Notes under the pieces: model-generated
Told to the model about the DNA's origin: nothing
Databases searched by the model: none
Seen by the model: only the letters and a program-made list of their open reading frames with translations
Shown here: positions 885 through 36,838 of the stretch, one piece after another
Layout of the letters: every line of letters begins with the position of its first letter
Position numbering within the stretch: position 1 is the first letter of the stretch
Made by a program: the position numbers and the translations under genes
Assembly: GCF_965232925.1 (NCBI RefSeq)
Contig: NZ_CBDDRA010000001.1
Span: 1 to 64,000 of the forward strand
Length of the DNA stretch: 64,000 nucleotides
DNA from: Tumidithrix helvetica PCC 7403
Lineage (GTDB): Bacteria; Cyanobacteriota; Cyanobacteriia; Pseudanabaenales; Pseudanabaenaceae
Reading direction: 5' to 3'

Positions 885-3800
885 CTATCTTGAATTGACC
901 CTAATTCAATAATTGCAGAAGACCTTACTAAGAAGTCAGGATCTTTTAATGCCTTGAGAAGTTCTATTTTCACCTCTGGACAACCTAATTTAATAAGAGC
1001 TTCTAATACATTTCTACGAGTAGTAGAGTCTTCGCATCTTATGGCTTTTAATAGAGATGGACATGCTTTTTTATCTCCGAGTTGTCCTAAAGCTGATGCT
1101 GCACACGCCTTATTCGAGGGATTTTCATTCTCAATGATTTTAATTAATTGTGGTATGGCTTTACTTAGAATTTCAATTTCTTCTGGAAATTGTCGAATTA
1201 ATTTAGCATCTAAAATATTGCAAGCACTAAGTTGAACCCAACTATCTGAATCACTCAATGCTTCTATTACTTTTGACAGCGCATCTCTTCCCAAGAAGGT
1301 ATACAATTTCTGGATTGCATTACCTCTTTGAATGGGAATATTAGATTTTAAAGCAGAAATACACTGTTCTGCTTCTCTTTTTTGTATTGCCTCATGATTA
1401 AGACGTGAAGACTTTATATTTTTCTGGATTTGCAAAGATATTTGATCTCTCACAAATTCCAATGAATGTTCAGATTCCAAATGAACATAATGATCTAAAT
1501 CTAAACGTGCTTCGTTTAAGAGAGGAATAACTTCGCTACCACCTAATTCCCTCAACATTTTTACTACAGTTATTTTAAGTGATACATCTTTACTAGATAA
1601 AACTTTAGACAAGGTATTTAGAACCTTTTGGCGATCAAGTTCTTTTAATGTTTCAACTGCTAGTCTCTTTATTTGACGTTCAGGATTTTCTGTCGCTTTG
1701 AGTAAGCTAAGAATTGCTTCTTCATTCACAAATTTTTGCAATGCGAATACCGCTCTTAGGCGAACATCTACTGATGAGTCATTTTGTAACACTCTATCCA
1801 AAATTGGGATTGCAATGTTATTCTTAGAGTCACCTAAAGCCCAAACTATATTTTCTCGAATTTTAGGGGCTGAGTCTTTCAAAGCAATCTCCGATAGAGT
1901 AATAATTACATCGCAAGGCATTTTTCTTAATGCCCAAGCCGCTCTTCTACGAACATTTTCATTTTGATGGCTGAGTAAAGTTTTGAACCCATCGACAGAT
2001 TGAATTGACTCAGTTTTTTCTAAAAGCGTAATTTTAACAAGGTCAGTCGTATTAATATTTTCAACTAGCTTAACTGTTGTCTCCTGAATTTCTGCTTTTG
2101 CCTCACCTGATAGTCTTGCGCCCAAAAATAAATCAACATCTAAAGCTTGTTGTACGACTTGTTCTACTAAATCATTGATGTCTGGGAACCCAAGCATGAT
2201 AGCGATCGCCTCAGTCCATTTTAGATAATTGAGATAATCCATCTGAAATGGCGTATATTTCTGATCTTCTTTTTTTTCTATAAGTTCAGGTAGCTTAGCA
2301 AGTATATACTCTGCCGCATAGTACTCTTGAAGCGATGGATGGCAAAACTGAACTTTACGACTACCAGCAGTTCCATTACATTGTAATAAATGATTGCTCA
2401 ATAAATTTTTCCGTATTTTTTCTCTGCCAATCAAGGTCAGAACATCTCCTTCATTAAAAGGCTTTTCAGAACGAGTCATTTCAAATGCAAGTAAGCTTAA
2501 CTGGGATCGCATCTCGGTCAAAACAACCCAATCAACTTCATCTTTCGCTTCTCTGGAATAGATATCTGTAAATTCCTGGTAAGCTTCTCCACGAGTATTA
2601 GGAGTCTCTTTAAGAGGATTTTGCTTAAAAATAATGTATAACATCCAAACCATCAGAGGAGTTTGCCCAAAATCACGCACGCGATCGCATAACTCCTGAA
2701 CCCGACTATTACCATGATGATCGGGTAATTTTTCACTAAAAAAGTCTTTAACCTTTTCAGAGCTTAATGGTTGAATTTCTAGCTTTGTCTGGATGCCTAA
2801 ATTACCTACATTAATATCGCGTGTAGTTGCAATCATCGGGAGATGATCACCACAGAAATACTTAAAAGCTCTATATCCATCACTTGATAACTCATTAACA
2901 CCATCTGCAAGCAGCACTAACCGCTTATACTTAATAAGTCTCTTTATATAAGTTATCTGTTCACTTTCCTGCATCTCTTCCAAAAATTCAAATCCTTCAA
3001 ATGCATCTCTAATCAATAGTAAAAAATCTGACTGATTCTGATAATCTTTTAACTTAATTAATAGTGGAATAGGAGAATTTGGATTTTGTAGTGCTTCTTT
3101 TGCCGCTTCAAGCAAAACTTTAGCTAAAATAGTTGATTTACCCGCTCCTGCTTTACCAACAATTAAAACTCGTTCGCTTGAAACTTGGCTAAGTGCATCT
3201 AAAATTGGCAATATAGCTGTCTTATCATCATCACTCGCTGAAAGTGAATTAGTCTCATTATTGAGTTTAGACTTAGGCACCTTTACAGTTAGTTCAAGCT
3301 CCTGCCAAGGTGCATTATTAATTTCATTCATGAAAGAATAAGAATCTTCCCACCAATCTTGATATTTCTGCTTAACAGCCTCTAGATAATTCCCTTCCTC
3401 CAAACTCATCACACCATTTGCTTTTGCACAATCCATTGCTAGTTGCTTTTCTTTTCTTATTTCATCTATTTCATTAATAGTGGCTTGATGGATCTCTTCA
3501 CCACGACGGATAAAAACAGTGCTTTTCGGATATCGCGTTCCATTAGGGAGCATCAGATCGCGGGTTGTTTCATGCAAATAAGGTGTGGGCGGAATAGATA
3601 CTATGAATAGTTGTTTACTATCCATCTCTATGAATTTGCATTGGATATCAGGAATAGGTGGATTACAGCAAGCATTAACTTTTTGAAGGATTTCTTTAGG
3701 AGTCAATGTAATGTGACTACAATCATACAAGTCTCTTGTTCCATCAGATTTCAGTTTGTCTTCAACTCCAACAATCAAAAATGCCGTTTCCCCAGCAGTA

Positions 3801-7657: not shown

Positions 7658-8692
7658 ATGGCAATCAACAAAGTACTGCTGCTATCAGCCAATCCAACCA
7701 ATACCGATCGCTTGCGGGTAGAGGCAGAATTTCGCGAAATCGAGACCTGTTGTCAAAAATCGACGTTACGCGATCGCTTTGCGATTGTGGCAAAAGGAGC
7801 CTTACGGATTGAGGATCTGCAACCCGTTTTGATTCAAGAAGCACCCAAAGTGGTGCATTTTTCGGGACATGGGGCAGCAGAGAATGGATTGGTTTTAGAA
7901 ACGGATGCAGGCACATGGGAACTGGTTGCCACAGAACCCCTCGCGGAACTGTTTCGCATTCTCCAAAATGGTATTGATTGCGTCGTGTTAAATGCTTGTT
8001 TCTCTCAGGTGCAGGCAGAGGCGATCGCCCATCATGTGCCCTACGTCTTGGGCATAAATCAGGCAATTGGCGATACGGCAGCGATCGCATTTGCCAAGGG
8101 ATTTTATGGCGCACTGTTTGAAGGCAAATCGGCGAAGGATGCCTTTGAGTTGGGCAAAAATCGCATCGCCTTAAAAAATATTCCCGAAGTTCAAACACCA
8201 GTTCTGATAGAACGCCACGGCGGAACACATCCCCAAAATGGGAATCGCATCCCCAACCAAGTTTTACCACTCCAGATCGCGCTAGAAGAACCCGAAGGAA
8301 CGGTACGAATTGGTTTGCAATTCTACATTCCCCGATCGCCTCAAGAAGAAGGCGCCTACGAAGCGATCGCCCGCCTCCATGCTCTCTTTCGTTTCAAGTC
8401 TCCCGATCGCATGGGCAAATCTTCGCTCTTAGTGCGAACCTTAGAAGAAGCCCGTCGATTGGGCAACCGCACGACATGGAGCGACCTGCAAAAATGCGAT
8501 CGCAAATTCCTAGAAAACATGGATCGGTTTTTGCAATGGTTCTGTGTTGTGATTGGACGCAATTTGGGCGTGAAAGCCAAACCAACCGATAGATGGGATG
8601 ATGTTTTTGGCGCCAATGGTATCTGTACGGAATTTTTTGAAGAACATCTGATCGGCGAGGATTATGAAAAAACTTTTGCAACTGGGGCTTAG
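7658..8692 (+). CDS. CHAT-domain (caspase-like) protease fused to a truncated AAA-like (AAA_35) domain
   Basis: The catalytic dyad context is VVHFSGHG ... CVVLNACFS. The N-terminus KVLLLSANPTNTDRLRVEAEFREIE is typical of cyanobacterial CHAT proteins. The C-terminus FRFKSPDRMGKSSLL...FLQWFCVVIGRNL matches the start of the cyanobacterial AAA-like domain, but the ORF stops before the expected Walker B. Confidence 0.75.
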   Translation: MAINKVLLLSANPTNTDRLRVEAEFREIETCCQKSTLRDRFAIVAKGALRIEDLQPVLIQEAPKVVHFSGHGAAENGLVLETDAGTWELVATEPLAELFRILQNGIDCVVLNACFSQVQAEAIAHHVPYVLGINQAIGDTAAIAFAKGFYGALFEGKSAKDAFELGKNRIALKNIPEVQTPVLIERHGGTHPQNGNRIPNQVLPLQIALEEPEGTVRIGLQFYIPRSPQEEGAYEAIARLHALFRFKSPDRMGKSSLLVRTLEEARRLGNRTTWSDLQKCDRKFLENMDRFLQWFCVVIGRNLGVKAKPTDRWDDVFGANGICTEFFEEHLIGEDYEKTFATGA

Positions 8693-20224: not shown

Positions 20225-22060
20225 ATGTCTTTTAGATTTCAGGAAATTAACAATCGTCAAGATTGGCGCAAGGCGAATTTATTGTGGTTTTGGGCTGCGA
20301 TCGCATCTTCCACGCTCGTAGGTGGCATTGCCCAAGCCCAAACCAAAACCGTTCCAACCAATGCAGCAAAGGCAAGTGATTCGAGTTTGATTCAGGCGAT
20401 CGGCAGCGATCCGATGTTAAAGCGTCCGCAAGAAAAAACTGCTCCCACCCGCGAACTATCAACAGAATCGGTTCTGATCCAAAAGATCGGTCAGCAGAAA
20501 GTCATCCCTGCCACCAATAAAACCGCCCAGAATGTTACCTCCGTTTCACAGCTAAGTGACGTTCGTCCGACGGACTGGGCATTTACAGCATTGCAATCTC
20601 TGGTTGAGCGCTATGGCTGCATTGCAGGCTATCCCGATCGCACCTATCGCGGTCAAAGAGCCTTAAGTCGTTATGAATTTGCTGCGGGTCTAAATGCCTG
20701 CCTCGATAAGATTAATGAAATTATTTCCGCAGGCTTGGCTGACAAAGTCAGTAAAGAAGACCTAGCGGCTCTACAGAAACTGCAAGAAGAGTTTGCTGCC
20801 GAACTTGCCACCCTGCGCGGGCGGGTTGATGCCCTAGAAGCTAAAACTGCAAAACTGGAAGCCCAGCAATTTTCCACGACCACCAAACTTTTTGGACAAG
20901 CTATCTTTGGTTTACAAGGACGGACAAATAATACTTCCAGAATTGTTGGGTTAAGTACCCCTGATACTGGAACCAACCTCACCCTCGGCAGCAATGTCGA
21001 ACTCACATTCTTAACGCAGTTCGATCGCCGCAACGTTCTGCTTACAGGTCTTAGCATTGGCAATATCTCCACAGCAGCAACTGGAAACAGCGGCTTTAAC
21101 AACTTATTTACGCGGTTAGGCTACGAGTCTCTCACAGGAGATACGGGCAACGCCGTTGTCCTCAGCGATTTAACCTATCGCACGCTTGTTACCGATAACC
21201 TCGCCGTTATTGTTGGGCCTGCGGGCGTTAACCCAATCACGGTTTTTCGTGGACCCAATCGTTATCAGAGTGCTGGACAAGGCTCCATCTCATTATTTGC
21301 TCAGCGCAATCCGATTTTAGGGCTTGGTAACACAACGGGTGGGGTGGGATTTGACTGGCAAATCAGCAAAACCATGAGTTTACAAGGTGTTTATGCAGCG
21401 TCTGCGCCAGCAACGGCGAATGGTAATGGCGGCTTGTTTGGTGGAAACTATACCGCAGGCGCACAATTTGTATTTGCACCTGTCGATCCTGTAGATATCG
21501 CCTTGTATTATCTCCACTCGTATACAAACAATGCAGGATTGGGTAGATTAAATACAGGTGTGGGTGATGACATTGTGGCAATTAACACGCTGGGGGGGAC
21601 GTTACCAACGCATACAGATGCCTTTGGCAGTACAGTGAACTGGCGAATTTTGCCAAAGCTTAACTTTGGTGGATGGGTTGGCTTTACCAGCTCAACAGTC
21701 AATGGTTTGTCAGGCAGCGTTCAGACCTTTAACTGGATGTCTTATCTAACTTTCCCCGATCTGTTTAAGGATGGTAATTTGGGGGGCATCTATGTGGGGC
21801 AACTGCCTAAAATTACAGGCAGTGACTTGAGTGGCAATAGCAACGTTCCTGACTATCTGAGCAATCCCCTATCAGCCACATCTGGAGCCGCAGCGGGTGG
21901 GCAGAGCACTGCCACAACCCATCTAGAAGTGTTTTATCGCTATCGAATTTCTAACAATATCAGTATTACGCCAGGTTTGATTTTCCTATTCAATCCAGGC
22001 AATCGTACAGGTAGCGATACGATTACTATCGGTGCGATCAGAACGACTTTTACATTCTAA
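20225..22060 (+). CDS. SLH-domain / OprB-family outer-membrane porin
   Basis: A signal peptide is followed by an SLH domain (TDWAFTALQSLVERYGCIAGYPDRTYRGQRALSRYEFAAGLNACL), a coiled coil and a Gly/aromatic-rich beta-barrel ending ...TTFTF. Confidence 0.85.
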   Translation: MSFRFQEINNRQDWRKANLLWFWAAIASSTLVGGIAQAQTKTVPTNAAKASDSSLIQAIGSDPMLKRPQEKTAPTRELSTESVLIQKIGQQKVIPATNKTAQNVTSVSQLSDVRPTDWAFTALQSLVERYGCIAGYPDRTYRGQRALSRYEFAAGLNACLDKINEIISAGLADKVSKEDLAALQKLQEEFAAELATLRGRVDALEAKTAKLEAQQFSTTTKLFGQAIFGLQGRTNNTSRIVGLSTPDTGTNLTLGSNVELTFLTQFDRRNVLLTGLSIGNISTAATGNSGFNNLFTRLGYESLTGDTGNAVVLSDLTYRTLVTDNLAVIVGPAGVNPITVFRGPNRYQSAGQGSISLFAQRNPILGLGNTTGGVGFDWQISKTMSLQGVYAASAPATANGNGGLFGGNYTAGAQFVFAPVDPVDIALYYLHSYTNNAGLGRLNTGVGDDIVAINTLGGTLPTHTDAFGSTVNWRILPKLNFGGWVGFTSSTVNGLSGSVQTFNWMSYLTFPDLFKDGNLGGIYVGQLPKITGSDLSGNSNVPDYLSNPLSATSGAAAGGQSTATTHLEVFYRYRISNNISITPGLIFLFNPGNRTGSDTITIGAIRTTFTF

Positions 22061-22085
22061 ACATTGCCATGGAGGCAGTCTAGTT

Positions 22086-22397
22086 ATGTCTAAAAAATTA
22101 TGGATAGCTATTGCCCTTGCTGGTTTTAGTTTTGTCCCTTTGCTTTCCACATTAACTCCTACTGCTTTTGCGGAAGGAACGAATGTTTTCAATGACAACT
22201 ACAATGATGACGGGAATAGACTTCGCAGCAACATCATTGATATGTCTCCTGAAGGAGATGTATCAATAGTACGAGTGAACATTCCTCCTGGTGGAACTCT
22301 TCCCCCATTACCTATATTTGTCGCACCGCCACCACCGCCACCTCCACCTCCACCTCCTCCTGTAGCGCCACCACCACCTCCTCCTGAACCTACGTAG
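22086..22397 (+). CDS. small secreted protein with C-terminal poly-proline tail
   Basis: GGAGG lies upstream of the ATG at 22086. The signal peptide is MSKKLWIAIALAGFSFVPLL. The tail is PPPPPPPPPPPPVAPPPPPPEP. I rejected the longer 22032 start because it has no RBS and overlaps the porin gene. Confidence 0.5.
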   Translation: MSKKLWIAIALAGFSFVPLLSTLTPTAFAEGTNVFNDNYNDDGNRLRSNIIDMSPEGDVSIVRVNIPPGGTLPPLPIFVAPPPPPPPPPPPPVAPPPPPPEPT

Positions 22398-24540: not shown

Positions 24541-25215
24541 TTAATTGCGAACGCCTTCTAACAAACGCGAAAAGTAAAACTGCGTGCAGGTTAGTTCTTT
24601 ACGCTTTACCTGAAATCCATTATCCGCCAATAAGCGTTTGATATCAGACTCAGCATGGAGATAAGCGCGGGTGGTTTTGCTGGGGCCGGGGAATAGTTCG
24701 CCCACTTTTTTGAGTAGGGAGTAATAGGCATTTTTTGGCGCAAAACTGAGAATTAAGCGGGATTTTGCCATGGATGCCAAGTGTTTAATCATCGACTCGG
24801 CTTGCTCGATCGGATAGTGAATCAGCACATCCAGACAAATCACCGTATCGTATTCACCCGATAGACTCTCTAAATCGCTGACCGTAAATACTGGGTTTTC
24901 AGGATCGGTAGCGCGTGTTTTTGCCTCGGCAATCATTTGCTTGGAAATATCGCTGGCATATACCTTTGCCCCTGCGGCGGCGAGGGGCAGGCTTAAACTG
25001 CCAACCCCACAACCCGCATCGCAAACGCTGATTTGGCTGTAGTTGCCGTCTTTTTTAAACCATTGCAGCACGTAGTCTACGGTCTGCTGGTGTCCTGTGC
25101 GAATATCTAGTTGTACTTTATTGACTTTGACGGATTCATCGGCATAGATGCGTCGCCAGCGGTCAAAGCCAACGGTATTGAAATAATTGCGGACAACTTC
25201 TTTGTCAGTGGTCAT
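24541..25215 (-). CDS. chlM: magnesium-protoporphyrin IX O-methyltransferase
   Basis: VCDAGCGVGSLSLPLAAAGAKVYASDIS is the SAM-binding motif in the ChlM context, and the protein is 224 aa. Confidence 0.85.
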   Translation of the reverse strand: MTTDKEVVRNYFNTVGFDRWRRIYADESVKVNKVQLDIRTGHQQTVDYVLQWFKKDGNYSQISVCDAGCGVGSLSLPLAAAGAKVYASDISKQMIAEAKTRATDPENPVFTVSDLESLSGEYDTVICLDVLIHYPIEQAESMIKHLASMAKSRLILSFAPKNAYYSLLKKVGELFPGPSKTTRAYLHAESDIKRLLADNGFQVKRKELTCTQFYFSRLLEGVRN

Positions 25216-25407: not shown

Positions 25408-26565
25408 ATGACATTGACAATTGCCGATCGCTTGTTACATTGGTACGACCAACATCGCCGCCAGCTACCTTGGCGCGATCATCCCGACCCCTATGCGGTC
25501 TGGGTATCAGAGATTATGCTGCAACAAACCCGCGTTGACACAGTAATTCCCTACTACGATCGCTGGTTGGCACAATTCCCCACGATCGCCGATCTGGCTG
25601 CGGCTTCTTTACAGGATGTTTTGAAACTCTGGGAGGGTTTGGGCTATTACAGTCGTGCCAGAAATTTACATCAAGCTGCCAAACAAGTCGTTCGGGATTA
25701 TGGCGGTCAACTTCCCAATAACCTGCAAGACCTGCGGAAATTGTCGGGGATTGGCAGATACACCGCTGGCGCGATCGCTTCCATTTGCTTTGCTTGTGAC
25801 GAACCAACGCTGGATGGCAATATTCGGCGGGTGCTCTCTAGGCTGTTTAATGTGGTGGAACCTTTAGGCTCTTCCCAAGGCGATCGCATCCTTTGGGAAC
25901 TGGCAAGAACGCATCTTCCCTCTGGACGCGCAGGGGACTACAACCAAGCTTGGATGGATTTGGGTGCGACGATCTGCACGCCGCGCCATCCTCAATGCGA
26001 ACTCTGTCCGCTGCGATCGGATTGTCAAGCCTATGGGTTGGGCATTCAAAGCGATCGCCCCGTACCGAAACCCCACAAACAGATTCCTCAGCGATCGGCT
26101 GTGGCAGCGATTATTCTGCAAGAAACTGAATCTGGATCGAAGGTCTTGCTGACTAAGCGACAGGAGAAAGGCTTGCTGGGTGGATTGTGGGAGTTTCCCT
26201 GTTGCTATGTGGATGAGAATTTGACTGGCGATTCCTTACAGGACGCGTCCCGCCGCGAAGGCGCAAACCTGCCAAAGTTCCTACACCAATTTCTCTTGAC
26301 TGAATTTAGTACTGAATTTGGCTCTGAATTCGTGACTGCATTTGCGAAGGAATTTCCTGTGGGAACCTATGTTCCCAATTTGTTTGGAACCTACAAACAT
26401 GCCTACACCCATTTTCGAGTGACGCTTCATGCCTATCTTTTTCCGTTTAGAGAATCATCAGAGAAATTGTGCAAACACCCCTGCTTAGATTGGGTTGCGA
26501 TCGCGGAGTTATCCAACTATCCTATGGGAAAACTCGCTCGCCAGATCTCCAAAAATCTATGCTAA
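25408..26565 (+). CDS. mutY: A/G-specific adenine DNA glycosylase
   Basis: There is an HhH-GPD domain, an Fe-S cluster motif (CTPRHPQCELCPLRSDC) and a C-terminal NUDIX-like domain. Confidence 0.9.
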   Translation: MTLTIADRLLHWYDQHRRQLPWRDHPDPYAVWVSEIMLQQTRVDTVIPYYDRWLAQFPTIADLAAASLQDVLKLWEGLGYYSRARNLHQAAKQVVRDYGGQLPNNLQDLRKLSGIGRYTAGAIASICFACDEPTLDGNIRRVLSRLFNVVEPLGSSQGDRILWELARTHLPSGRAGDYNQAWMDLGATICTPRHPQCELCPLRSDCQAYGLGIQSDRPVPKPHKQIPQRSAVAAIILQETESGSKVLLTKRQEKGLLGGLWEFPCCYVDENLTGDSLQDASRREGANLPKFLHQFLLTEFSTEFGSEFVTAFAKEFPVGTYVPNLFGTYKHAYTHFRVTLHAYLFPFRESSEKLCKHPCLDWVAIAELSNYPMGKLARQISKNLC

Positions 26566-26616: not shown

Positions 26617-26682
26617 CAGGGCGAGCACGGGGGCATCGCCCCTACCACAATTCGTAGGGGCAGCGCCCCCGTGCCTGCCCTG
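26617..26682. repeat. long imperfect palindrome: 29-nt arms with 5 mismatches and an 8-nt loop
   Basis: The left arm cagggcgagcacgggggcatcgcccctac pairs with the right arm gtaggggcagcgcccccgtgcctgccctg. It shares the gtagggg/cccctac motif with MITE family A. Confidence 0.4.
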
Positions 26683-26790: not shown

Positions 26791-26959
26791 CAATTCTCAT
26801 GGGATAGAGGTGAGCGACAAATGCCGCGTCGGCACAGATCCCCGACTTTTTGTGGGAATGAAAAAAGTTATCTATGCCTACAAAGAAAAAGTCGGGGATC
26901 TCAATTCGCATTGATTATATCGTAGCAAATAGAAGTGTAAAAGCCTTATGGATTATACT

Positions 26960-29329
26960 TCACAAGTCTCGATGCGAGAAAAGAAGTCCAACCTCATAAC
27001 TCTTAAAAAAATACAGCTTAAAAATAAAGGGGAGATGTCCCTTATTATTTATGAAATTATTATCTAAAAATGGCTGAGGATAGTTCACCCATTTACCCTC
27101 GCTTTTCCACGCTATGCGATCGCAAAACTGATCCCAAGCCTTTTCACTTGGATAACTAAAATCTAGCTTACCACCACATTCTACATAAATTTGCTTTTGG
27201 ACGCTAAAGCCATAAAGCCCGTTGCTGTACTGCACCCAAAGGCGATCGATTGCCAATAGCTCATCACAGGGAAACTCCTGCAAGTCCACTGGCTCAAACC
27301 ACTGTCCCTCGTCCTTACCCGCCGCCGTAATCATCAAGCGATAGATTTCTTGGTCTGCTTCGAACCATTGCTTCGTCTTGAGATGTTCTTCTAACTTTTG
27401 ATATCGCGAAGTTTTTACAGGTTCTTTGAGACCCTGTAGTGCTTTCCTTTCCGCAGGTAACAGATTTAATCGTTTATCTGTTTGGCGATAGATTTGATAT
27501 GCTAAATCTGTCTGATTGCGATTAATCGCCTCTTGAATAATTCTAGTTGGATTGACTAGGCTAGCATAAAACAAAATTAGATCTTTCCATGTACTGACGC
27601 CTAAGCATTTAAAAATCAACCTTTCACCCTCTTCCTTTAAGCGTACAATTTCCGCAGCCGCCAAAAACTCTTGAAAACTGAGGTGCGAAAACTGATAGAT
27701 ACTTCCATCTCTTTTTACTAACAGTTCGCTTACCTGTTCCATTTGTGTCAAAAACTCTTCCGAATCCACATCGGGATCGATTTTGGATAAAGACATTTCG
27801 ATCAGTTGTAATAAGCTATTCCGTTGGATTTGTTTAAATCCTTCTTTATCGTTAATATTTTTTGCTACCCGAACCATCATCCTCAAAGCCAAATTTTGCA
27901 ATACTCCCTGACGTTGGCTGATGGAATTTAGCAGTAAAGTAACTCCCTTTGCTTTTGGTCGCCGTCCCAATTGCATCTCGCAAATATCCTGATATAACTC
28001 CACTCTGCGCTGGGGCAACTCTGCTCCCTGCTTATCCCGATGAAAACGCGCCATCATGTTTAGCAACAGCACATTACCCGCAATATCATTGAGTTCTGGA
28101 CGTGCTTCAATTTGTGCTAACAAAGAAGCTGCTCTTTCTTTCGCTTTTTGTCCCACATCTGGCGTATTGCGTTCCGCTCTTGCATGACGTTCTTGGCATA
28201 GATACCACTGTTCCACAAATTCTTTGCGCTGTTCTCGATTAAAATCCTGAATCCAAAAACTAGCTGAAGGTTTCCTCGCTACATCATCCTCTTTGTAGGC
28301 GGTTGGGCGCGAAGTCAATATAAAAACAGACTTGCGATATTGCTGCATTTCCCAACTCAGCCACTCACTTACCTTTGTTCTCTCAGAGGGTGGTACTTCA
28401 TCAAATCCATCAAACAGCACCAACGCATCACCTTGATTGAGCAAATTTAGCGCCCAGTTGGGTGGAGCCTCCAACCCCTTAGCCTGTGACAATTTTGGTA
28501 ATCTTTTGAAATGATAGGAAGTTAATAATTCTGGCAAATTTGGCGGATTTTCTTTGATGATTTCTTTTCGACAATCTGCTAAATACAACAAAAATGGAAT
28601 GAATTTTGGCGCTCGATATTTGCCATATCCTCGAACGCTGTAAGTATAGGCTAGATGCTTTAACAGTGTTGATTTGCCATAGCCACCCCAAGCCCGAATC
28701 ACAATTTGACGATAGTTATCTTTTTGTTTGACAAGCCGCAGCAAATCCCAGATCTGCATCACTGGGTACTCTTCACCACGTTGCCGAAATTCGTAACCTG
28801 CTTCCATCGAATCTGTCGAAAGTTGTAACGGTACAAACACTTCTTGCAATAATGGATTGCTCTGAGGCAGATCTTCTTCTTCCTTTAGCCCAACGGCATA
28901 ATCTTCGTGACAGTCCCAACGCTGACATTGCAGATACTTTGCCTCAAAACCTGAAAACTGCCATTTACTCCACTCGCTCCAAGCTTGAGTAAAAGACTGA
29001 TTCCAGCGATCCATATTCGCTACAAAGCCTTCAGCATCCTTCTTGCCACGCTCAGCATAAATTTCACTCAATCGCTCGATAAAATTTTTGCTGTACGTTG
29101 CCCAAACCCCTGAGATTGCCGTTACAGGAAATAGCGCCAAAGCCGTAGCCCATTCTTGCTTGAGCAAAAACGAGCCAAAAGCAAAACTTGTTCCCCCTAA
29201 AGGTGACCATCGCGCAATTGCCTGAAGCGATCGCTGCACAAATTTCTTCTCGGTACTAGGCGCACTACTGGTAGTACTTTGCTTGTCGGACTTAGATTTT
29301 GCTTCTTTCGATTCTGGCTCTTGAGTCAT
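26960..29329 (-). CDS. NACHT-family STAND NTPase with N-terminal membrane/helical region and C-terminal GUN4-like domain
   Basis: Walker A is IVIRAWGGYGKSTLL and Walker B is LVLFDGFDEV. The C-terminus ...EADQEIYRLMI...LQEFPCDELLAIDRLWVQYSNGLYGFSVQKQIY fits the GUN4 pattern. The gene is AT-rich. Confidence 0.7.
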   Translation of the reverse strand: MTQEPESKEAKSKSDKQSTTSSAPSTEKKFVQRSLQAIARWSPLGGTSFAFGSFLLKQEWATALALFPVTAISGVWATYSKNFIERLSEIYAERGKKDAEGFVANMDRWNQSFTQAWSEWSKWQFSGFEAKYLQCQRWDCHEDYAVGLKEEEDLPQSNPLLQEVFVPLQLSTDSMEAGYEFRQRGEEYPVMQIWDLLRLVKQKDNYRQIVIRAWGGYGKSTLLKHLAYTYSVRGYGKYRAPKFIPFLLYLADCRKEIIKENPPNLPELLTSYHFKRLPKLSQAKGLEAPPNWALNLLNQGDALVLFDGFDEVPPSERTKVSEWLSWEMQQYRKSVFILTSRPTAYKEDDVARKPSASFWIQDFNREQRKEFVEQWYLCQERHARAERNTPDVGQKAKERAASLLAQIEARPELNDIAGNVLLLNMMARFHRDKQGAELPQRRVELYQDICEMQLGRRPKAKGVTLLLNSISQRQGVLQNLALRMMVRVAKNINDKEGFKQIQRNSLLQLIEMSLSKIDPDVDSEEFLTQMEQVSELLVKRDGSIYQFSHLSFQEFLAAAEIVRLKEEGERLIFKCLGVSTWKDLILFYASLVNPTRIIQEAINRNQTDLAYQIYRQTDKRLNLLPAERKALQGLKEPVKTSRYQKLEEHLKTKQWFEADQEIYRLMITAAGKDEGQWFEPVDLQEFPCDELLAIDRLWVQYSNGLYGFSVQKQIYVECGGKLDFSYPSEKAWDQFCDRIAWKSEGKWVNYPQPFLDNNFINNKGHLPFIFKLYFFKSYEVGLLFSHRDL

Positions 29330-29447
29330 GGCGAGTTATAGCGCATTTCAGGCATTATAAGCCCATAAACGAAATTGTTGTGAGAGAAATTGCTAGTGCT
29401 CTCTAAAAAGTTATACTTTCAGAAAGAGGATTTGAGGAAAGATTGGC

Positions 29448-29572: not shown

Positions 29573-29797
29573 ATGACTTTACAAGATCTCTTATCCGAAG
29601 CTAAAAATCTGGATCTTCAGGAGCAAATTCAACTAGCTACACAGCTATTGCAATGGGTAGAAAGAAAGGTTAAAAAAGAACCTCAAGTTACACCACTCAA
29701 AAAGCTGCGATCGCCCGGACTCGGTCTAGGCTCTTGCCTATTCACCGATGACTTTGACGATCCGCTACCCGATGAATTTTGGCTTGGCGAAGCATGA
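29573..29797 (+). CDS. VapB-like antitoxin
   Basis: A 74-aa product with the C-terminal DDFDDPLPDEFW motif. Its stop overlaps the VapC start in an ATGA arrangement. Confidence 0.6.
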   Translation: MTLQDLLSEAKNLDLQEQIQLATQLLQWVERKVKKEPQVTPLKKLRSPGLGLGSCLFTDDFDDPLPDEFWLGEA

Positions 29798-30180
29798 AAT
29801 TACTATTGGATACCCACACCTTTATGTGGTGGCATAGCGAACCAGAAAAGATTCCTAGTGATACGCTGATATTACTCCAAGATCCCAGCTACGAACTGTT
29901 CGTCAGTGTAGTCAGCCTATGGGAAATGCAAATCAAAATTCAGTTAGGAAAACTAACCCTCAGAGATGACTTAGAACTTATGCTCAGGATTCAACAGGAG
30001 CAGAATAATATCGTTCTAGTATCTGTAACATTTCCCCATATTCTGGAATTAAGAAATTTACCGTTTCATCATAAAGATCCATTCGATCGACTTCTGATCG
30101 CTCAATCTAAAGTTGAAAATGCAGCATTAATTAGTCGAGACCCAGTTTTTCAAAACTATGATTGTCATGTAATTTGGTAA
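29794..30180 (+). CDS. vapC: PIN-domain ribonuclease toxin VapC
   Basis: MKLLLDTHTFMWW ... DPFDRLLIAQS ... ISRD are the classic PIN acidic residues. I placed the start at the ATG at 29794 rather than the ORF-track 29779. Confidence 0.85.
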   Translation: MKLLLDTHTFMWWHSEPEKIPSDTLILLQDPSYELFVSVVSLWEMQIKIQLGKLTLRDDLELMLRIQQEQNNIVLVSVTFPHILELRNLPFHHKDPFDRLLIAQSKVENAALISRDPVFQNYDCHVIW

Positions 30181-30332
30181 TTGCTTTGGAGAAGCGCGAT
30201 CGCTGGGCGATCCGCTTGCTCTTGAGCTTTTGGTAAACAGTTTTGTAGATCGCGCCTTAAATGGCATATGTTATGCTTTAGTTTCTACGCAATTCGCTTC
30301 TAAAACACCTAAAAGCTTGGGCAGGAATAGCT

Positions 30333-30650
30333 ATGGCGATCGCGAACTCTCTATCCCATTTGACCATTCTCGAAAATGGCGATCGCTTAGATCGAGATGA
30401 ATTTGAACGTCGGTATGCCGCATCAAACATCAAAAAAGCCGAACTCATTGAAGGAGCGGACATTAGATCAACAAATCGATTGGTTTGTTTTAGAAAATGG
30501 CGAATATCAGAACTTAGAACCCGATGTCAATGGAATGCTCTGTAGTCGAGAATTTACAGGGTTATGGCTCAATGTAAATGCACTGTTGAGTCATGATATG
30601 GCAGCAGTTCTTAAGACATTGCAAACTGGTCAGAAAATCATCCCATGAGG
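30333..30650 (+). pseudogene. Uma2-family (DUF820) endonuclease gene, frameshifted and degraded
   Basis: Two overlapping frames carry the N-terminus-like RLDRDEFERRYAASNIKKAELIEG and the C-terminus-like ENGEYQNLEPDVNGMLCSREFTGLWLNVNALL. The gene is not intact in either frame. Confidence 0.45.
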
Positions 30651-33961: not shown

Positions 33962-36838
33962 ATGCGCTCTCGTCTGAAATTAATTGGTGTTACTGCGATC
34001 GCGCTATCTCTCTCTTTCAGCCAAGTCTCTACCCTCTATCCCCTAGAACCTGCTTCTGCCCAAACAACACAAGAGCGCAAGCTAGTTTTAGCATTGAATG
34101 AATCGCTTAGGGAATTACTAGGGCCTGCTTCTGCCCAAACGACACTACTAAATCGTCAGGCAGAGGCAGATCGGCTGTTGCAGCAAGGGATTCAGCAAGC
34201 TTACATCAGTCAGTTTGAGGCAGCATTTCAATCATGGCAGCAAGCATTACAGATTTACCGAGCGATCGGCAACCGTCAGGGAGAAAGCTATGCGCTGGGA
34301 AATCTGGGAAACGTATACCAAGCCCTCGGCAAGTACGACAAAGCCATCGAGTACGCAGAGCAAGCCTTAGCGATTGCGCAGGAACTAAAAGACAAAAAGA
34401 GTGAGGGTACAGCGCTAGGAAATCTGGGAAACGCTTACTATTCCCTCGGCAGGTACGACAAAGCGATCGAGTACCAACTGCAAAGCTTAGCGATCGCGCG
34501 GGAAATCAAAGACAGACTGGGTGAGGGACAGTCGCTGGGAAATCTGGGAATTGCTTACAATGCCCTCGGCAAGTACGACAAAGCGATCGAGTACCAACTG
34601 CAAAGATTAGCGATCGCGCGGGAAATCAAAGACAGACTGGGTGAGGGACAGTCGCTGGGAAATCTGGGAAACGCTTACGATGACCTCGGCAAGTACGACA
34701 AAGCGATCGAGTACCAACTGCAAAGCTTAGCGATCGCGCGGGAAATCAAAGACAGACTGGGTGAGGGACAGTCGCTGGGAAATCTGGGAATTGCTTACCG
34801 AAACCTCGGCAAGTATGACAAAGCCATCGAGTACCAACTGCAAAGATTAGCGATCGCGCGGGAAATCAAAGACAGACTGGGTGAGGGCGCAGCGCTGGGA
34901 GGTCTGGGACTCACTTACTTTTATCTGGGTAAGTACGACAAAGCGATCGAGTACCAACTGCAAAGCTTAGCGATCGCGCGGGAAATCAAAAACAGACTGG
35001 GTGAGGGTACAACGCTGGGAAATCTCGGAATTGCTTACGATGCTCTCGGCAAGTACGACAAAGCGATCGAGTACCAACTGCAAAGATTAGCGATCGCGCA
35101 GGAAATCAAAGATAGGAAGGGTGAGGAACAGTCACTGGCAAATCTGGGAATTGCTTACCGAAACCTCGGCAAGTACGACAAAGCGATCGAGTACCAACTG
35201 CAAAGCTTAGCGATCACGCGGGAAATCAAAGACAGACTGGTTGAAGGCGCAGTGCTTGGAAATCTGGGAAACGCTTACATATACCTCGGCAAGTACGACA
35301 AAGCGATCGAGTACCAACTGCAAAGCTTAGCGATCACGCGGGAAATCAAGGATAGAGAAGGCGAAGGCAAAGCGCTCAACAATATCGGCTCTGTCTTGGC
35401 AACCCAAAAACAACCAGATCTTGCCATTCTCTTTTACAAACAATCCGTCAAAGTATGGGAGTCCATTCGCAAAGATATTCGCAAACTCGATAAATCGGAG
35501 CAAAAATCTTATTTAGAAACCGTCTCTGTTAGCTATCGTAGTCTCGTCGATCTCCTACTCCAACAAGGGCGAGTCACTGAAGCATTACAAGTTCTCGACT
35601 TGCTCAAAATCCAAGAACTCGAAGACTATCTCAAAAATGTCAAAGGAAACGATCGCACGGCAAAGGGAGTCGAACTTTTAGCGCCAGAGAAAGCGATGAG
35701 CGAACAGCTATCAGCTCTCAGCTATGAAAAGATTCCAGAACTCAACCGCCAACTTGCCAGCCAGATTCAGCAACTGCCAAAATCAGAAATCAACAAAGTT
35801 CCTGACTACTTACAAAAGCTACCAAAAGGAGCTGTCCTACTCTATCCCCTGATTCTCGAAGATCGTTTGGAACTGATCGTCTTCTCCGCCAATACCTTCC
35901 CCATCAACCGCACCGTTCCCATCAAAAAAGCCGATCTAGAGAAACTCGTTACAGATGTTCGCGCTGACTTGCGAGACTACACTTCCCTAGACATCAAAAA
36001 CTCTAGCCCCAAACTCTACGACATTCTGATCAAACCCATCGAAGCCGATCTCAAACAAGCCAACGCTACCACCATTCTCTATGCCCCTGACGGAATCCTG
36101 CGCTACATTCCCCTTGCTGCACTTTATGATGGCAAACAGTGGTTAGTAGAGAAATATCGCATCGATAACCTGATTGCCTATAGCCTCTTCGATCCAGATA
36201 GCAAACCTCAATCCAACATTCGTATCTTTGCAGGTGCATTTGGTGGTAAAAAAGGAGAAAACCGATTTGGAGTTGACGGATTGCCTGCCACCATTCCCGA
36301 AGTCGAAAACATTCAAACTTCATTCCCAAATACGACCAAGCTCATCGAGCAGGACTTCACAGCCCAAGCCAGCAAAGTAAAAGTTTCTGGTAATGCGATC
36401 GTCCACATCGCCACCCATGCTAAGTTTATATCGGGCAGCCCCTTAGATTCCTACGTGTTGTTTGGCGATGGCAGCAAAGTCACCCTAGCCGAGATTAATG
36501 ACTGGCAGCTCAAGGATGCCGATTTAGTCGTTCTCAGTGCCTGCGAGACAGGTGTAGGCAGCTTAGGCAATGGTGCGGAAATTCTCGGTTTTGGCTATCA
36601 GGTACAGCGTGCGGGGGCAAAGGCTTCGATCGCTTCTCTCTGGACGGTATCCGATGGCGGCACGCAGTTGTTAATGGAAGCGCTGTATAGCAATTTGCAA
36701 AAGGGAAATACCAGCATGTCAACTTCGCTCAGAGAGGCACAGCTCAGCATGATTCGCAGATCGGTAAAGCAGGGAGAGATTAACTTCAACCATCCCTATT
36801 ACTGGTCTGCTTTCGTCCTGATTGGGAATGGGCTGTAG
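33962..36838 (+). CDS. TPR-repeat / CHAT-domain protease, 958 aa
   Basis: There are more than 10 TPR units (LGNLGNAY...GKYDKAIEY). The C-terminal CHAT dyad context is IVHIATHAKF ... LVVLSACETG. Confidence 0.85.
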   Translation: MRSRLKLIGVTAIALSLSFSQVSTLYPLEPASAQTTQERKLVLALNESLRELLGPASAQTTLLNRQAEADRLLQQGIQQAYISQFEAAFQSWQQALQIYRAIGNRQGESYALGNLGNVYQALGKYDKAIEYAEQALAIAQELKDKKSEGTALGNLGNAYYSLGRYDKAIEYQLQSLAIAREIKDRLGEGQSLGNLGIAYNALGKYDKAIEYQLQRLAIAREIKDRLGEGQSLGNLGNAYDDLGKYDKAIEYQLQSLAIAREIKDRLGEGQSLGNLGIAYRNLGKYDKAIEYQLQRLAIAREIKDRLGEGAALGGLGLTYFYLGKYDKAIEYQLQSLAIAREIKNRLGEGTTLGNLGIAYDALGKYDKAIEYQLQRLAIAQEIKDRKGEEQSLANLGIAYRNLGKYDKAIEYQLQSLAITREIKDRLVEGAVLGNLGNAYIYLGKYDKAIEYQLQSLAITREIKDREGEGKALNNIGSVLATQKQPDLAILFYKQSVKVWESIRKDIRKLDKSEQKSYLETVSVSYRSLVDLLLQQGRVTEALQVLDLLKIQELEDYLKNVKGNDRTAKGVELLAPEKAMSEQLSALSYEKIPELNRQLASQIQQLPKSEINKVPDYLQKLPKGAVLLYPLILEDRLELIVFSANTFPINRTVPIKKADLEKLVTDVRADLRDYTSLDIKNSSPKLYDILIKPIEADLKQANATTILYAPDGILRYIPLAALYDGKQWLVEKYRIDNLIAYSLFDPDSKPQSNIRIFAGAFGGKKGENRFGVDGLPATIPEVENIQTSFPNTTKLIEQDFTAQASKVKVSGNAIVHIATHAKFISGSPLDSYVLFGDGSKVTLAEINDWQLKDADLVVLSACETGVGSLGNGAEILGFGYQVQRAGAKASIASLWTVSDGGTQLLMEALYSNLQKGNTSMSTSLREAQLSMIRRSVKQGEINFNHPYYWSAFVLIGNGL
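34290..35390 (+). repeat. about 9 tandem copies of a 120-nt unit (40 aa; TPR units) with very high nucleotide identity
   Basis: The unit ...ctcggcaagtacgacaaagcgatcgagtaccaactgcaaag(c/a)ttagcgatcgcgcgggaaatcaaagacagactgggtgagggacagtcgctgggaaatctgggaa... recurs head-to-tail. Confidence 0.7.

Follow-up and report, generated by a model that had tools for sequence, protein, structure and literature searches.

The gene studied here lies on the minus strand at positions 26960..29329 of a 64,000-nucleotide stretch of contig NZ_CBDDRA010000001.1 of the cyanobacterium Tumidithrix helvetica PCC 7403; this whole stretch is referred to below as the window. It is a complete open reading frame (ORF) whose 789-aa product joins a NACHT NTPase to a GUN4-like domain. 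The most likely reading, which we hold with moderate confidence, is that the product works as an NLR-like receptor in which a rapidly diversifying loop is displayed on the GUN4 scaffold. The related genes have a hypervariable segment with sharp boundaries at their 3' ends, DNA that is conserved independently of the reading frame, and an association between a Y1 (HUH) gene and the GUN4 module that holds in both directions. The protein would thus be an NLR-like STAND receptor with a swap-prone N-terminal effector or anchor, a NACHT domain that appears catalytically intact, NLR helical domains, and a GUN4-paralog sensor. The core fold of GUN4 is retained and helix 7 is lost, with a cassette between GGACACCTCC and TCTYYTCTCGCAYCNAGACTTGT... 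in its place. The loop on the GUN4 scaffold would act as a fast-evolving recognition or bait surface that controls NACHT oligomerization, a role that may be likened to that of other NLR-like defense or allorecognition receptors. The cassette may be rewritten by a site-specific DNA process, with the two motifs as its cis sites, and this process is possibly catalyzed by Y1.

The variable insert of the window gene comprises 42 nt (26987..27028, minus strand; aa 768-781; FIFKLYFFKSYEVG) and occupies the position of GUN4 helix 7, which contains the LxNxLR motif and Arg214. Its composition is atypically A/T-rich. The left boundary motif GGACATCTCCC (27030..27040, minus strand; family consensus GGACACCTCC) codes for G-H-L-P and is constrained at synonymous sites: GGA was used in 76% of cases (background, 22%), CAC in 88% (background, 38%), and CTC in 74% (background, 12%), while the third base of the Pro codon was free. 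The tails that follow GHLP in the family are 7 to 98 aa long (median, 15), mutually unrelated, and rich in Gly, Val, and Trp, with 20% Gly. In about 40 loci, the inserts were approximately 15 to 115 nt long, and their lengths modulo 3 were distributed 15:14:11. Their composition was 41% G, 31% T, and 9.5% C, compared with 25, 26, and 19%, respectively, in the adjacent coding DNA. Direct copies (≥7 nt) of the flanks were enriched inside the inserts (P = 0.004 and 0.03), whereas no enrichment was seen for inverted ("snap-back") copies (P = 0.92 and 0.57). At two loci (L003 and L053), the insert contained an additional direct copy of the left flank that codes for GHLP, and at a third the conserved element that follows the insert was tandemly duplicated within the ORF (L068:1965-2091). 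These three duplicates are footprints of duplication or templated insertion at the cassette.

The insert differed even between nearly identical genes. In one 90%-identity protein cluster, ten members were 99.6% identical over the 124 aa before GHLP and had five different tails, with all three frames represented. Loci L086, L087, and L088 come from different samples and are alleles at a single chromosomal position (DegT / gene / Y1 / RecJ). Between L086 and L087 there were 0 differences in 2,262 coding nt and 1 difference in 3,032 downstream nt, and the inserts were unrelated (47 and 62 nt); the insert of L088 was 16 nt long. The boundaries of replacement between alleles were located exactly at ..GGACACCTCCC and TCTTTTCTCGC... 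The rest of the gene was under purifying selection (pN/pS, 0.30), and the turnover of the insert exceeded that of any other nucleotide in about 5 kb of flanking sequence. Some related alleles showed G-runs and small stepwise indels; most differences were wholesale replacements. Sequencing or assembly artifacts were rejected as the source of the frame differences, since all frames were found with inserts lacking long homopolymers, identical tails were assembled independently of each other from separate sources, and isolate genomes behaved alike. An artifact is unlikely to explain the insert variation. GUN4 fusions whose N-termini are CHAT-like, trypsin, kinase, or RNase III-like had the same arrangement of tail and 3' element. 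More distant GUN4 paralogs had only the protein-level terminus L..RL..C, encoded by different DNA.

Downstream of the insert, the gene ends in a conserved 3' DNA element (CTTCTTTTCTCGCATCGAGACTTGTGAAGTATAA...; 26931..26986, minus strand), which codes for LLFSHRDL and the stop in frame A and runs past the stop. An nhmmer search gave a single match in the window (26931-26985, E = 8e-15). The right motif reads TCTYYTCTCGCAYCNAGACTTGT..., and the element in the family is CTCTTCTCTCGCAYCNAGACTTGTRAASTGTAR. Three terminal peptide motifs are found in the family, LFSHRDL (frame A), FFSRIETCEV, and LASRLVKC.. (frame C, resembling the L..RL..C of other GUN4 paralogs), and they are the three reading frames of this one element. 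Every frame has a separate stop, and the stops of all frames fall within about 20 nt. The insert length is not tied to multiples of three, and the right motif is therefore translated in all three frames. The use of the frames was even (17:16:16; chi-square P = 0.98). The columns of the element were conserved irrespective of frame, and the third position was not relaxed (0.50 to 0.78 bits per codon position), in comparison with 0.43, 0.38, and 1.25 bits in a control stretch of the same genes. Downstream of all stops, the noncoding motif AACTTTTGTAAA was conserved across architectures. The element occurred once per locus and in this position only (51/51 loci by pattern and 74 loci by nhmmer), and an interpretation as a dispersed repeat was rejected on these grounds. 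A search of Rfam at the 3' element returned no family even at E ≤ 10. About 60 nt past the stop of the window gene there is a perfect 15-nt inverted repeat with a 34-nt loop (26837-26900; GATCCCCGACTTTTT ... AAAAAGTCGGGGATC), for which Rfam gave only spurious miRNA-like matches.

Of 62 non-redundant family loci with enough downstream sequence, 32% had a Y1 gene next to the 3' end (16 intact copies and 4 remnants). It was always convergent with the NACHT-GUN4 gene; the intact copies encode 246 to 275 aa and are located 46 to 185 nt past the stop. The catalytic residues were invariant in 17 orthologues (N59 H60. H62; R121 Y122 I123 H124. N126 P127). Identity to the reference copy was 64 to 74% across genera in the first set of loci, higher than that of the NACHT-GUN4 proteins themselves, and 63 to 96% across orders. 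The protein matched PF01797 (E = 9e-19), and its best profile match was the NCBIfam RAYT model NF047646 (74.9 bits; cut-off, 80). It resembles RAYTs and the IS200-IS605 TnpA (HUH Y1) transposases in its PF01797 domain, its NHVH and YIHANP motifs, and, at some loci, the GTAG-type palindromes nearby. It differs from RAYTs in scoring just under their cut-off and in carrying about 120 additional aa at its C-terminus. What RAYTs are known for is the dispersal of REP/REPIN elements and not a fixed convergent pairing with one domain module (PMC6006769).

The association was also tested in reverse, by scanning metagenome contigs with the Y1 alignment without GUN4 information and counting the loci with at least 600 nt downstream of Y1. 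A convergent ORF with the GUN4 core was present at 46 of these 51 Y1 loci (90%), the 3' element was present at 43, and the gap was 43 to 330 nt. The adjacent GUN4 partners had NACHT, AAA_35 ATPase, caspase, or unassigned N-termini. Because the N-terminal partners vary, the association of Y1 is with the 3' end of the GUN4 module and not with NACHT. This Y1-anchored metagenome set contained no pairs close enough for a comparison of different inserts between identical flanks. The GUN4/Y1 pairs were confirmed on three complete, annotated plasmids: NZ_CP024793.1 (WP_100904210.1 / WP_100904211.1), NZ_CP060823.1 (WP_187707581.1 / WP_235678425.1), and NZ_CP054694.1 (WP_181927087.1 / WP_181927088.1). 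The second of these, a 146-kb plasmid of Cylindrospermopsis curvispora (L090, L175), has six GUN4-domain places and three Y1 places. Two of its GUN4 genes have different N-termini, are near-identical from the 3' element onward, and carry unrelated inserts. Such a pattern points to a 3' unit that was duplicated or evolved in concert.

No Y1 homologue was found in the 64 kb of the window. Approximately 290 to 330 nt past the stop, the window has an inverted doublet of REP-type (REPIN-like) palindromes (26625..26675; GTAGGGGCG..GCCCC and GTAGGGGC-type), where two matches were found and chance would give 0.06; the window has no other pair of this kind. Similar GTAGGGGC palindromes were found beyond the 5' end of Y1 in L001 and L036, and some of the examined loci lacked them. 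The place of the doublet in the window is where other loci hold the Y1 gene and similar palindromes. With no adjacent Y1 and with an A/T-rich insert, the window copy may be a quiescent member of the family.

Y1 could instead be a selfish, site-specific element of the IS200/RAYT type that targets, or is retained at, the 3' end of the GUN4 module and has no part in the insert, so that the pairing would reflect target preference or co-mobility. This alternative is tentative and on balance somewhat unlikely. Elements of the Y1 family recognize specific single-stranded DNA sites and REP hairpins (PMC6006769), and GTAGGGGC-type palindromes flank the Y1 gene. Other transposases are also located downstream of these genes, inserts and motif conservation are alike at loci that lack Y1, and one plasmid combines several Y1 places with more than one GUN4 module whose 3' flank is near-identical. 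However, an identity of 63 to 96% across orders, the invariant catalytic residues, and the presence of the gene usually once per locus, in a fixed convergent orientation at 43 to 330 nt, are more like a domesticated partner. In addition, 90% of the Y1 loci adjoin a GUN4 module, and a selfish element leaves the hypervariability of the insert unexplained.

According to a further explanation, which we consider unlikely, the insert is a neutral scar, either of an unstable G-rich tract prone to G-quadruplexes or slippage or of a damaged junction beside a mobile element. The terminus would be frameshift tolerant, and the conserved GUN4 core would sense some conserved ligand or protein, e.g., the H subunit of Mg-chelatase. 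The inserts are indeed of low complexity and predicted to be disordered, and the G-runs and small stepwise indels between related alleles, as well as the short direct copies of the flanks, which suggest replication or repair errors, fit such a scar. So do the stops of all frames within about 20 nt and the high conservation of the GUN4 core. However, 16 to 62 nt were replaced wholesale with zero substitutions in 2.2 kb, which is far faster and more localized than ordinary instability. The sharp boundaries persist across cyanobacterial orders and N-terminal partners, and the boundary motifs are conserved at synonymous or frame-independent positions, suggesting that selection keeps the arrangement.

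It is quite improbable that indels in the G-rich tract serve a three-state phase variation, in which the C-terminal peptide (..LFSHRDL, ..FFSRIETCEV, or ..LASRLVKCxx) switches between distinct receptor states (e.g., autoinhibited, primed, and off) and the right motif is kept to encode three useful peptides: although the three frames are comparably used, conservation ends at the stop of the last frame, the polypyrimidine tract gives a hydrophobic-hydrophobic-Ser-basic peptide in every frame, and frames C and A resemble the paralog terminus L..RL..C and the canonical GUN4 terminus LLNHPAW, respectively, the changes are mostly wholesale replacements rather than reversible slippage of repeat units, the noncoding motif past all stops is also conserved, and the conservation of the left motif at synonymous sites points to a DNA-level constraint beyond coding.

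The initial annotation of this gene had proposed that its C-terminal domain senses chlorophyll precursors. The GUN4 family assignment itself was borne out. The match to PF05419 covered aa 640-770 (E = 2e-32; 112.7 bits; cut-off, 29.2; profile positions 5-126 of 141), and in a phmmer search the C-terminus matched the solved GUN4 structures 1z3x (E = 4e-12) and 1y6i (E = 5e-11), as well as 7e2r and 4ykb. The GUN4-paralog core comprises aa 640-767 (27029..27412, minus strand), i.e., helices 1 to 6 up to the conserved GHLP, as delimited by PF05419, the PDB matches, and the alignment with SynGUN4, TeGUN4, and CrGUN4, and it was modeled with a predicted local distance difference test score (pLDDT) of 80 to 93. 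For this alignment, the SynGUN4 reference was verified against 1y6i (100% over 233 aa), the cores of T. elongatus and Chlamydomonas were taken from the same search, and 115 family members were included.

The ligand-binding signature was absent. In SynGUN4, porphyrin binding depends on Arg214, which was called "absolutely essential" for it (PMC1084334). The same LxNxLR motif contains Asn211, a residue that bilin binding requires and that all GUN4 paralogs lack (PMC10156173). In the window protein, the corresponding stretch reads GHLP-FIFKLY, with Phe770 in place of Asn211 and Tyr773 in place of Arg214. Neither LxNxLR nor N.[LIVM]R was found in any of 82 family members. The AlphaFold2 (AF2) model has no helix at residues 769-780 (pLDDT < 50), and the place of helix 7 is predicted to be disordered. 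Helices 7 and 8, which complete the "cupped hand" (Val218, Ala219, Tyr223, Trp228), are not kept, as this segment is hypervariable. Many of the hydrophobic "greasy palm" core positions are conserved in the family, and the GUN4 core as a whole is highly conserved. The window domain shares with canonical GUN4, the Mg-chelatase cofactor (Synechocystis Sll0558; PDB 1Y6I/4XKB), the Pfam family, core helices 1 to 6, and the FGFSVQ and GHLP motifs. Canonical GUN4 differs in that it stands alone, is about 230 aa long, and has kept helix 7 (LxNxLR; Arg214, Arg217) and helix 8. In the family studied here, the hypervariable segment takes the place of helix 7, the alpha2/alpha3 loop is shorter by 2 residues, and helices 5 and 6 are separated by an insertion. 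The window domain groups with the "paralog" clade that lacks Asn211. By its sequence, it belongs to the GUN4 Pfam family and falls outside the functional, tetrapyrrole-binding GUN4 group on the defining feature of that group.

A profile match to PF05419 had been named beforehand as the test of the proposal. The match was obtained, and the test was too weak because the protein belongs to the fold family while the ligand-binding signature is missing. Thus, a GUN4-family domain in the sensor position stands, and tetrapyrrole sensing by it is doubtful, as judged from the residues at positions 214 and 211. The full proposal is that chlorophyll precursors (protoporphyrin IX, Mg-protoporphyrin) or bilins are ligands of the GUN4 domain and that the NACHT protein thereby monitors photosynthetic status, photo-oxidative danger, or a change in tetrapyrrole metabolism caused by phage. 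It is favored by the strong match to the GUN4 profile and to tetrapyrrole-binding GUN4 structures, by the conservation of many palm positions, by the restriction of the family to cyanobacteria, and by the location of chlM 1.7 kb away in the window. It had also been predicted in print: cyanobacterial NACHT-GUN4 proteins as sensors of chlorophyll derivatives by Kibby et al. (bioRxiv 10.1101/2022.07.19.500537), and GUN4 fusions in general, by the same argument, by Kaur et al. (PMC7159879). The idea was thus not new with the initial annotation. On the other side, Arg214 and Asn211 were absent from 82/82 relatives (Tyr and Phe in the window), and the whole helix-7 region is hypervariable and indifferent to frame. 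The known GUN4 paralog of Synechocystis gave no gun4 phenotype, and an inability to bind porphyrins was predicted earlier for a paralog that has Tyr at position 214 (PMC1084334, PMC10156173). The chlM neighborhood was not conserved either, and tetrapyrrole sensing by this family is, in our estimate, a poor prospect.

The proximity of chlM had been offered as functional support. The gene is indeed two genes away (24541..25215, minus strand; TIGR02021, E = 8e-77), the second past the 3' end of the NACHT-GUN4 gene and 1.7 kb off, with mutY (25408..26565, plus strand) between them on the opposite strand. In a tblastn search of 85 related loci (about 1 Mb) with the window ChlM, a single locus had chlM within ±6 to 8 kb, and it was located on the 5' side. 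This locus is that of Limnothrix redekei (L036), where chlM (2968-3633) is located about 2.4 kb upstream and divergent. The chlM gene was absent from five loci of close homologues. When the window neighbors were searched by tblastn against the 85 loci, chlM was recovered that one time, on the other side, and conserved synteny with chlM or mutY was rejected. The chlM linkage is coincidental, with no functional tie. The recurrent neighbors of the relatives were toxin-antitoxin pairs, Uma2 genes, and transposases, and plasmid locations were also recurrent; the part of the earlier interpretation that placed the gene in an accessory context therefore holds.

Several observations weigh against an NLR-like receptor with a diversifying loop. 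Both ongoing diversification and a recognition role of the loop are inferred from sequence. The inserts, which are of low complexity (Gly/Val/Trp-rich) and predicted to be disordered, would also fit an unconstrained linker. Loci with and without an adjacent Y1 did not differ significantly in the G content of the insert (P = 0.065) or in right-motif conservation (P = 0.13). With no Y1-dependent difference, a cis requirement for Y1 is therefore not supported; that Y1 acts in trans would be pure conjecture. In the Y1-anchored set, the frames were used unequally (A 5 : C 17 : B 10). Frame C resembles the terminus of other GUN4 paralogs, and therefore some protein-level preference exists. No conserved hairpin across the stops, of the type usually recognized by HUH enzymes, was established: RNAalifold gave -0.27 kcal/mol, which is essentially no structure. 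A candidate 9-bp stem was rejected; it paired in 58.5% of cells versus 60.6% in a register slid by 2 and was limited to the Pseudanabaena subgroup. Finally, the palm residues are kept, so a noncanonical binding of tetrapyrroles may occur.

The NACHT part of the fusion, as reported in the initial annotation, was confirmed together with the exact ORF. The protein was 100% identical to the public Tumidithrix helvetica PCC 7403 record, annotated as "NTPase (NACHT family)" / "GUN4 domain-containing protein." The AF2 model had a mean pLDDT of 76 and was confident for aa ~190-768. The NACHT NTPase core (aa 209-375; 28205..28705, minus strand) matched PF05729 (E = 3e-12) and contains Walker A, GGYGKST (215-221), and Walker B, LVLFDGFDE (303-311). 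The Walker A residues G215, G216, G218, K219, and T221 and the Walker B residues D307, G308, F309, D310, and E311 were invariant in 43 homologues. The core is followed by a helical and winged-helix region of the NLR type, HD1-WHD-HD2 (aa 376-630; 27440..28204, minus strand), with weak Pfam matches to HTH_TANC1 and NLRC4_HD2, pLDDT values of 70 to 95, and a Foldseek alignment to NLRC4. In a Foldseek comparison of the model with the PDB, the top matches were NLRC4 (4kxf, E = 1.2e-12), NOD2 (5irm, 3.7e-10), and NLRP3 (about 1e-9), over more than 500 aligned columns. The window protein is a genuine STAND NTPase of the NLR type, with an NBD-HD1-WHD-HD2 module like that of animal NLRs.

The N-terminal module comprises aa 1 to about 190 (28760..29329, minus strand) and, by hydropathy and the AF2 model, consists of a disordered head, two weakly hydrophobic helices (about 43-79), and a long helix (81-141). 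It had no Pfam match at E ≤ 1. The hydrophobic segments at about aa 43-81 are weak (Kyte-Doolittle maximum, 1.35), and residues 1-91 had a pLDDT of <50. Close homologues exchange this part of the protein, and at least four unrelated kinds of module occur there, i.e., two kinds of hydrophobic hairpin, a Gly-zipper-like hairpin, and a beta-rich domain of about 170 aa, none with a Pfam match (P0014/P0031/P0061 compared with the window protein; L001 compared with L005). Between L001 and L005, the 399 nt upstream were 100% identical, the N-termini could not be aligned, and the identity was 69% in the NACHT region and 86% in the 3' part. This mosaic pattern is consistent with an exchangeable module that is a putative effector or membrane anchor. 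The initial annotation had described 250 partly hydrophobic N-terminal residues as a possible effector; the region is shorter, about 190 aa, and only weakly hydrophobic, and its proneness to exchange leaves an effector role plausible.

None of the NACHT-system models of PADLOC matched the window protein. The sole match was to the PD-T4-6 model and was obtained through the GUN4 region (aa 605-770, E = 1e-31, profile positions 274-426 of 450), so that the C-terminus of this model is apparently GUN4-like. PD-T4-6 is an anti-phage protein of E. coli. The paper that mentions PD-T4-6 most, however, concerns PASTA-type kinases found by the kinase part of the model and is silent on GUN4. A tblastn search of 72,556 plasmids with the GUN4 core returned cyanobacterial records only, so that the HMM match is the sole sign of a GUN4-like domain outside the cyanobacteria. 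More than 700 full-length homologues with both NACHT and GUN4 domains were present in the protein collection, and at least 480 relatives were found among species-representative genomes, essentially all of them cyanobacteria.

Directly upstream of the ATG, the gene has a short conserved 5' leader with a TATAAT box (29330..29369, minus strand; ..GGGCTTATAATGCCTGAAATGCGC..; ..TTATAATGC.TGAAATGCG..). This leader and the conserved MTQEPE start are kept in homologues whose upstream genes and N-terminal modules are unrelated (L001/L002/L003/L005, positions ~7960-8000). A conserved small partner ORF upstream was considered and rejected, since the ORFs of about 76 aa found there belong to various toxin-antitoxin pairs and have no counterpart in the window. 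A VapC/PIN gene (29779..30180) is located upstream of the NACHT-GUN4 gene and is overlapped by a small upstream ORF. The GC content of the gene is 42.7%, compared with 45.2% for the window and 47 to 50% for the neighboring genes. The AT-richness pointed out initially is thus present but modest, and the VapBC context also stood, while the decayed Uma2 gene could not be verified: at ~30230-30650 there was no Pfam match even at E ≤ 10, and tblastn with the Uma2 proteins of related loci gave a best E value of about 0.5. Located 4.6 kb upstream, at 33962-36838 (plus strand), is a gene for a 958-aa protein with many TPR repeats and, by eye only, a CHAT-like C-terminus, which would be another protein of the conflict-system type in this neighborhood. 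Elsewhere in the window, a small ORF at 22032-22397 (plus strand), between a porin-like gene and an S9 peptidase gene, ends in about 25 prolines (PPPPPPPPPPPPVAPPPPPPEPT).

Among described systems, the window protein most directly recalls the bNACHT anti-phage proteins (Kibby et al. 2022/2023; class "other C-terminal sensor domains: GUN4"), with which it shares intact Walker motifs, NLR helical domains, a variable N-terminus, and GUN4 in the sensor position. The NACHT-GUN4 proteins of that literature are likewise cyanobacterial and in an accessory context, and any role of theirs in phage defense is putative. The same literature assumes tetrapyrrole sensing, whereas the missing LxNxLR helix, the cassette, the frame-independent terminus, and the Y1 partner were not reported in it. 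In the literature searched, whose coverage was incomplete, neither the variable tail nor the three-frame terminus nor the link to Y1 was described.

The cassette also resembles the targets of cyanobacterial diversity-generating retroelements (DGRs), in which C-type-lectin/FGS variable regions are fused to kinase, caspase, or STAND domains. Both have extreme 3' hypervariation and a downstream cis element (the initiation of mutagenic homing sequence in DGRs), and the N-terminal partners (kinase, caspase, NTPase) are the same as those of the GUN4 modules. DGRs, however, change only adenine-templated positions, keep length and frame, and require a reverse transcriptase and a template repeat. The inserts of the GUN4 cassettes are instead unrelated to one another, about 15 to 115 nt long, indifferent to frame, and G/T-rich, and the linked gene is an HUH Y1 gene and not a reverse transcriptase gene. 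At the 8 loci for which gene tables were available, none of the called genes was a reverse transcriptase gene; the rest of the genomes was not searched for a template repeat.

Receptors and surface antigens are diversified by domesticated transposases or recombination in V(D)J junctional diversity with RAG, in the antigenic variation of Neisseria pilE, and in the repeat hypervariability of fungal NLRs. The cassette described here is similar in having a short hypervariable segment, conserved cis motifs, heterogeneous length and frame, templated copies of the flanks, and a linked transposase-derived gene. The resemblance is formal only; somatic or within-clone rearrangement, donor cassettes, and an enzymatic activity would be conjecture for the GUN4 cassettes. 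Carried further, it would imply that a cassette of a non-retroelement kind is dedicated to diversification in the GUN4-paralog modules of cyanobacterial conflict proteins (fusions with NACHT, AAA_35, caspase, kinase, and protease domains), that a domesticated RAYT-like HUH endonuclease repeatedly excises its content and fills the gap with sequence that is G/T-rich and in part templated by the flanks, giving diversity of the junction type in the loop with which these NLR-like receptors would sense, and that the terminus evolved three-frame readability as a form of tolerance. We regard this extended model as speculative and, at present, unlikely to hold in full.

Taken at face value, the initial finding restated a published prediction and added little to it. 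The loss of the binding residues undercuts the accepted view that cyanobacterial GUN4 fusions sense chlorophyll precursors. A hypervariable cassette with sharp limits, set within the sensor domain of NLR-like proteins and followed by a terminus that is conserved as DNA and read in three frames, is a very unusual gene anatomy, and the GUN4 module is tied in both directions to a conserved HUH transposase-like gene, whatever its N-terminal partner. If the link to Y1 is causal, bacteria would have a new, DGR-independent means of diversifying receptors for immunity or recognition, and RAYT-type enzymes, long of unclear function, would gain a new role in the cell. A cassette that is rewritten in this way would, if true, be a prokaryotic counterpart of transposase-derived receptor diversification.

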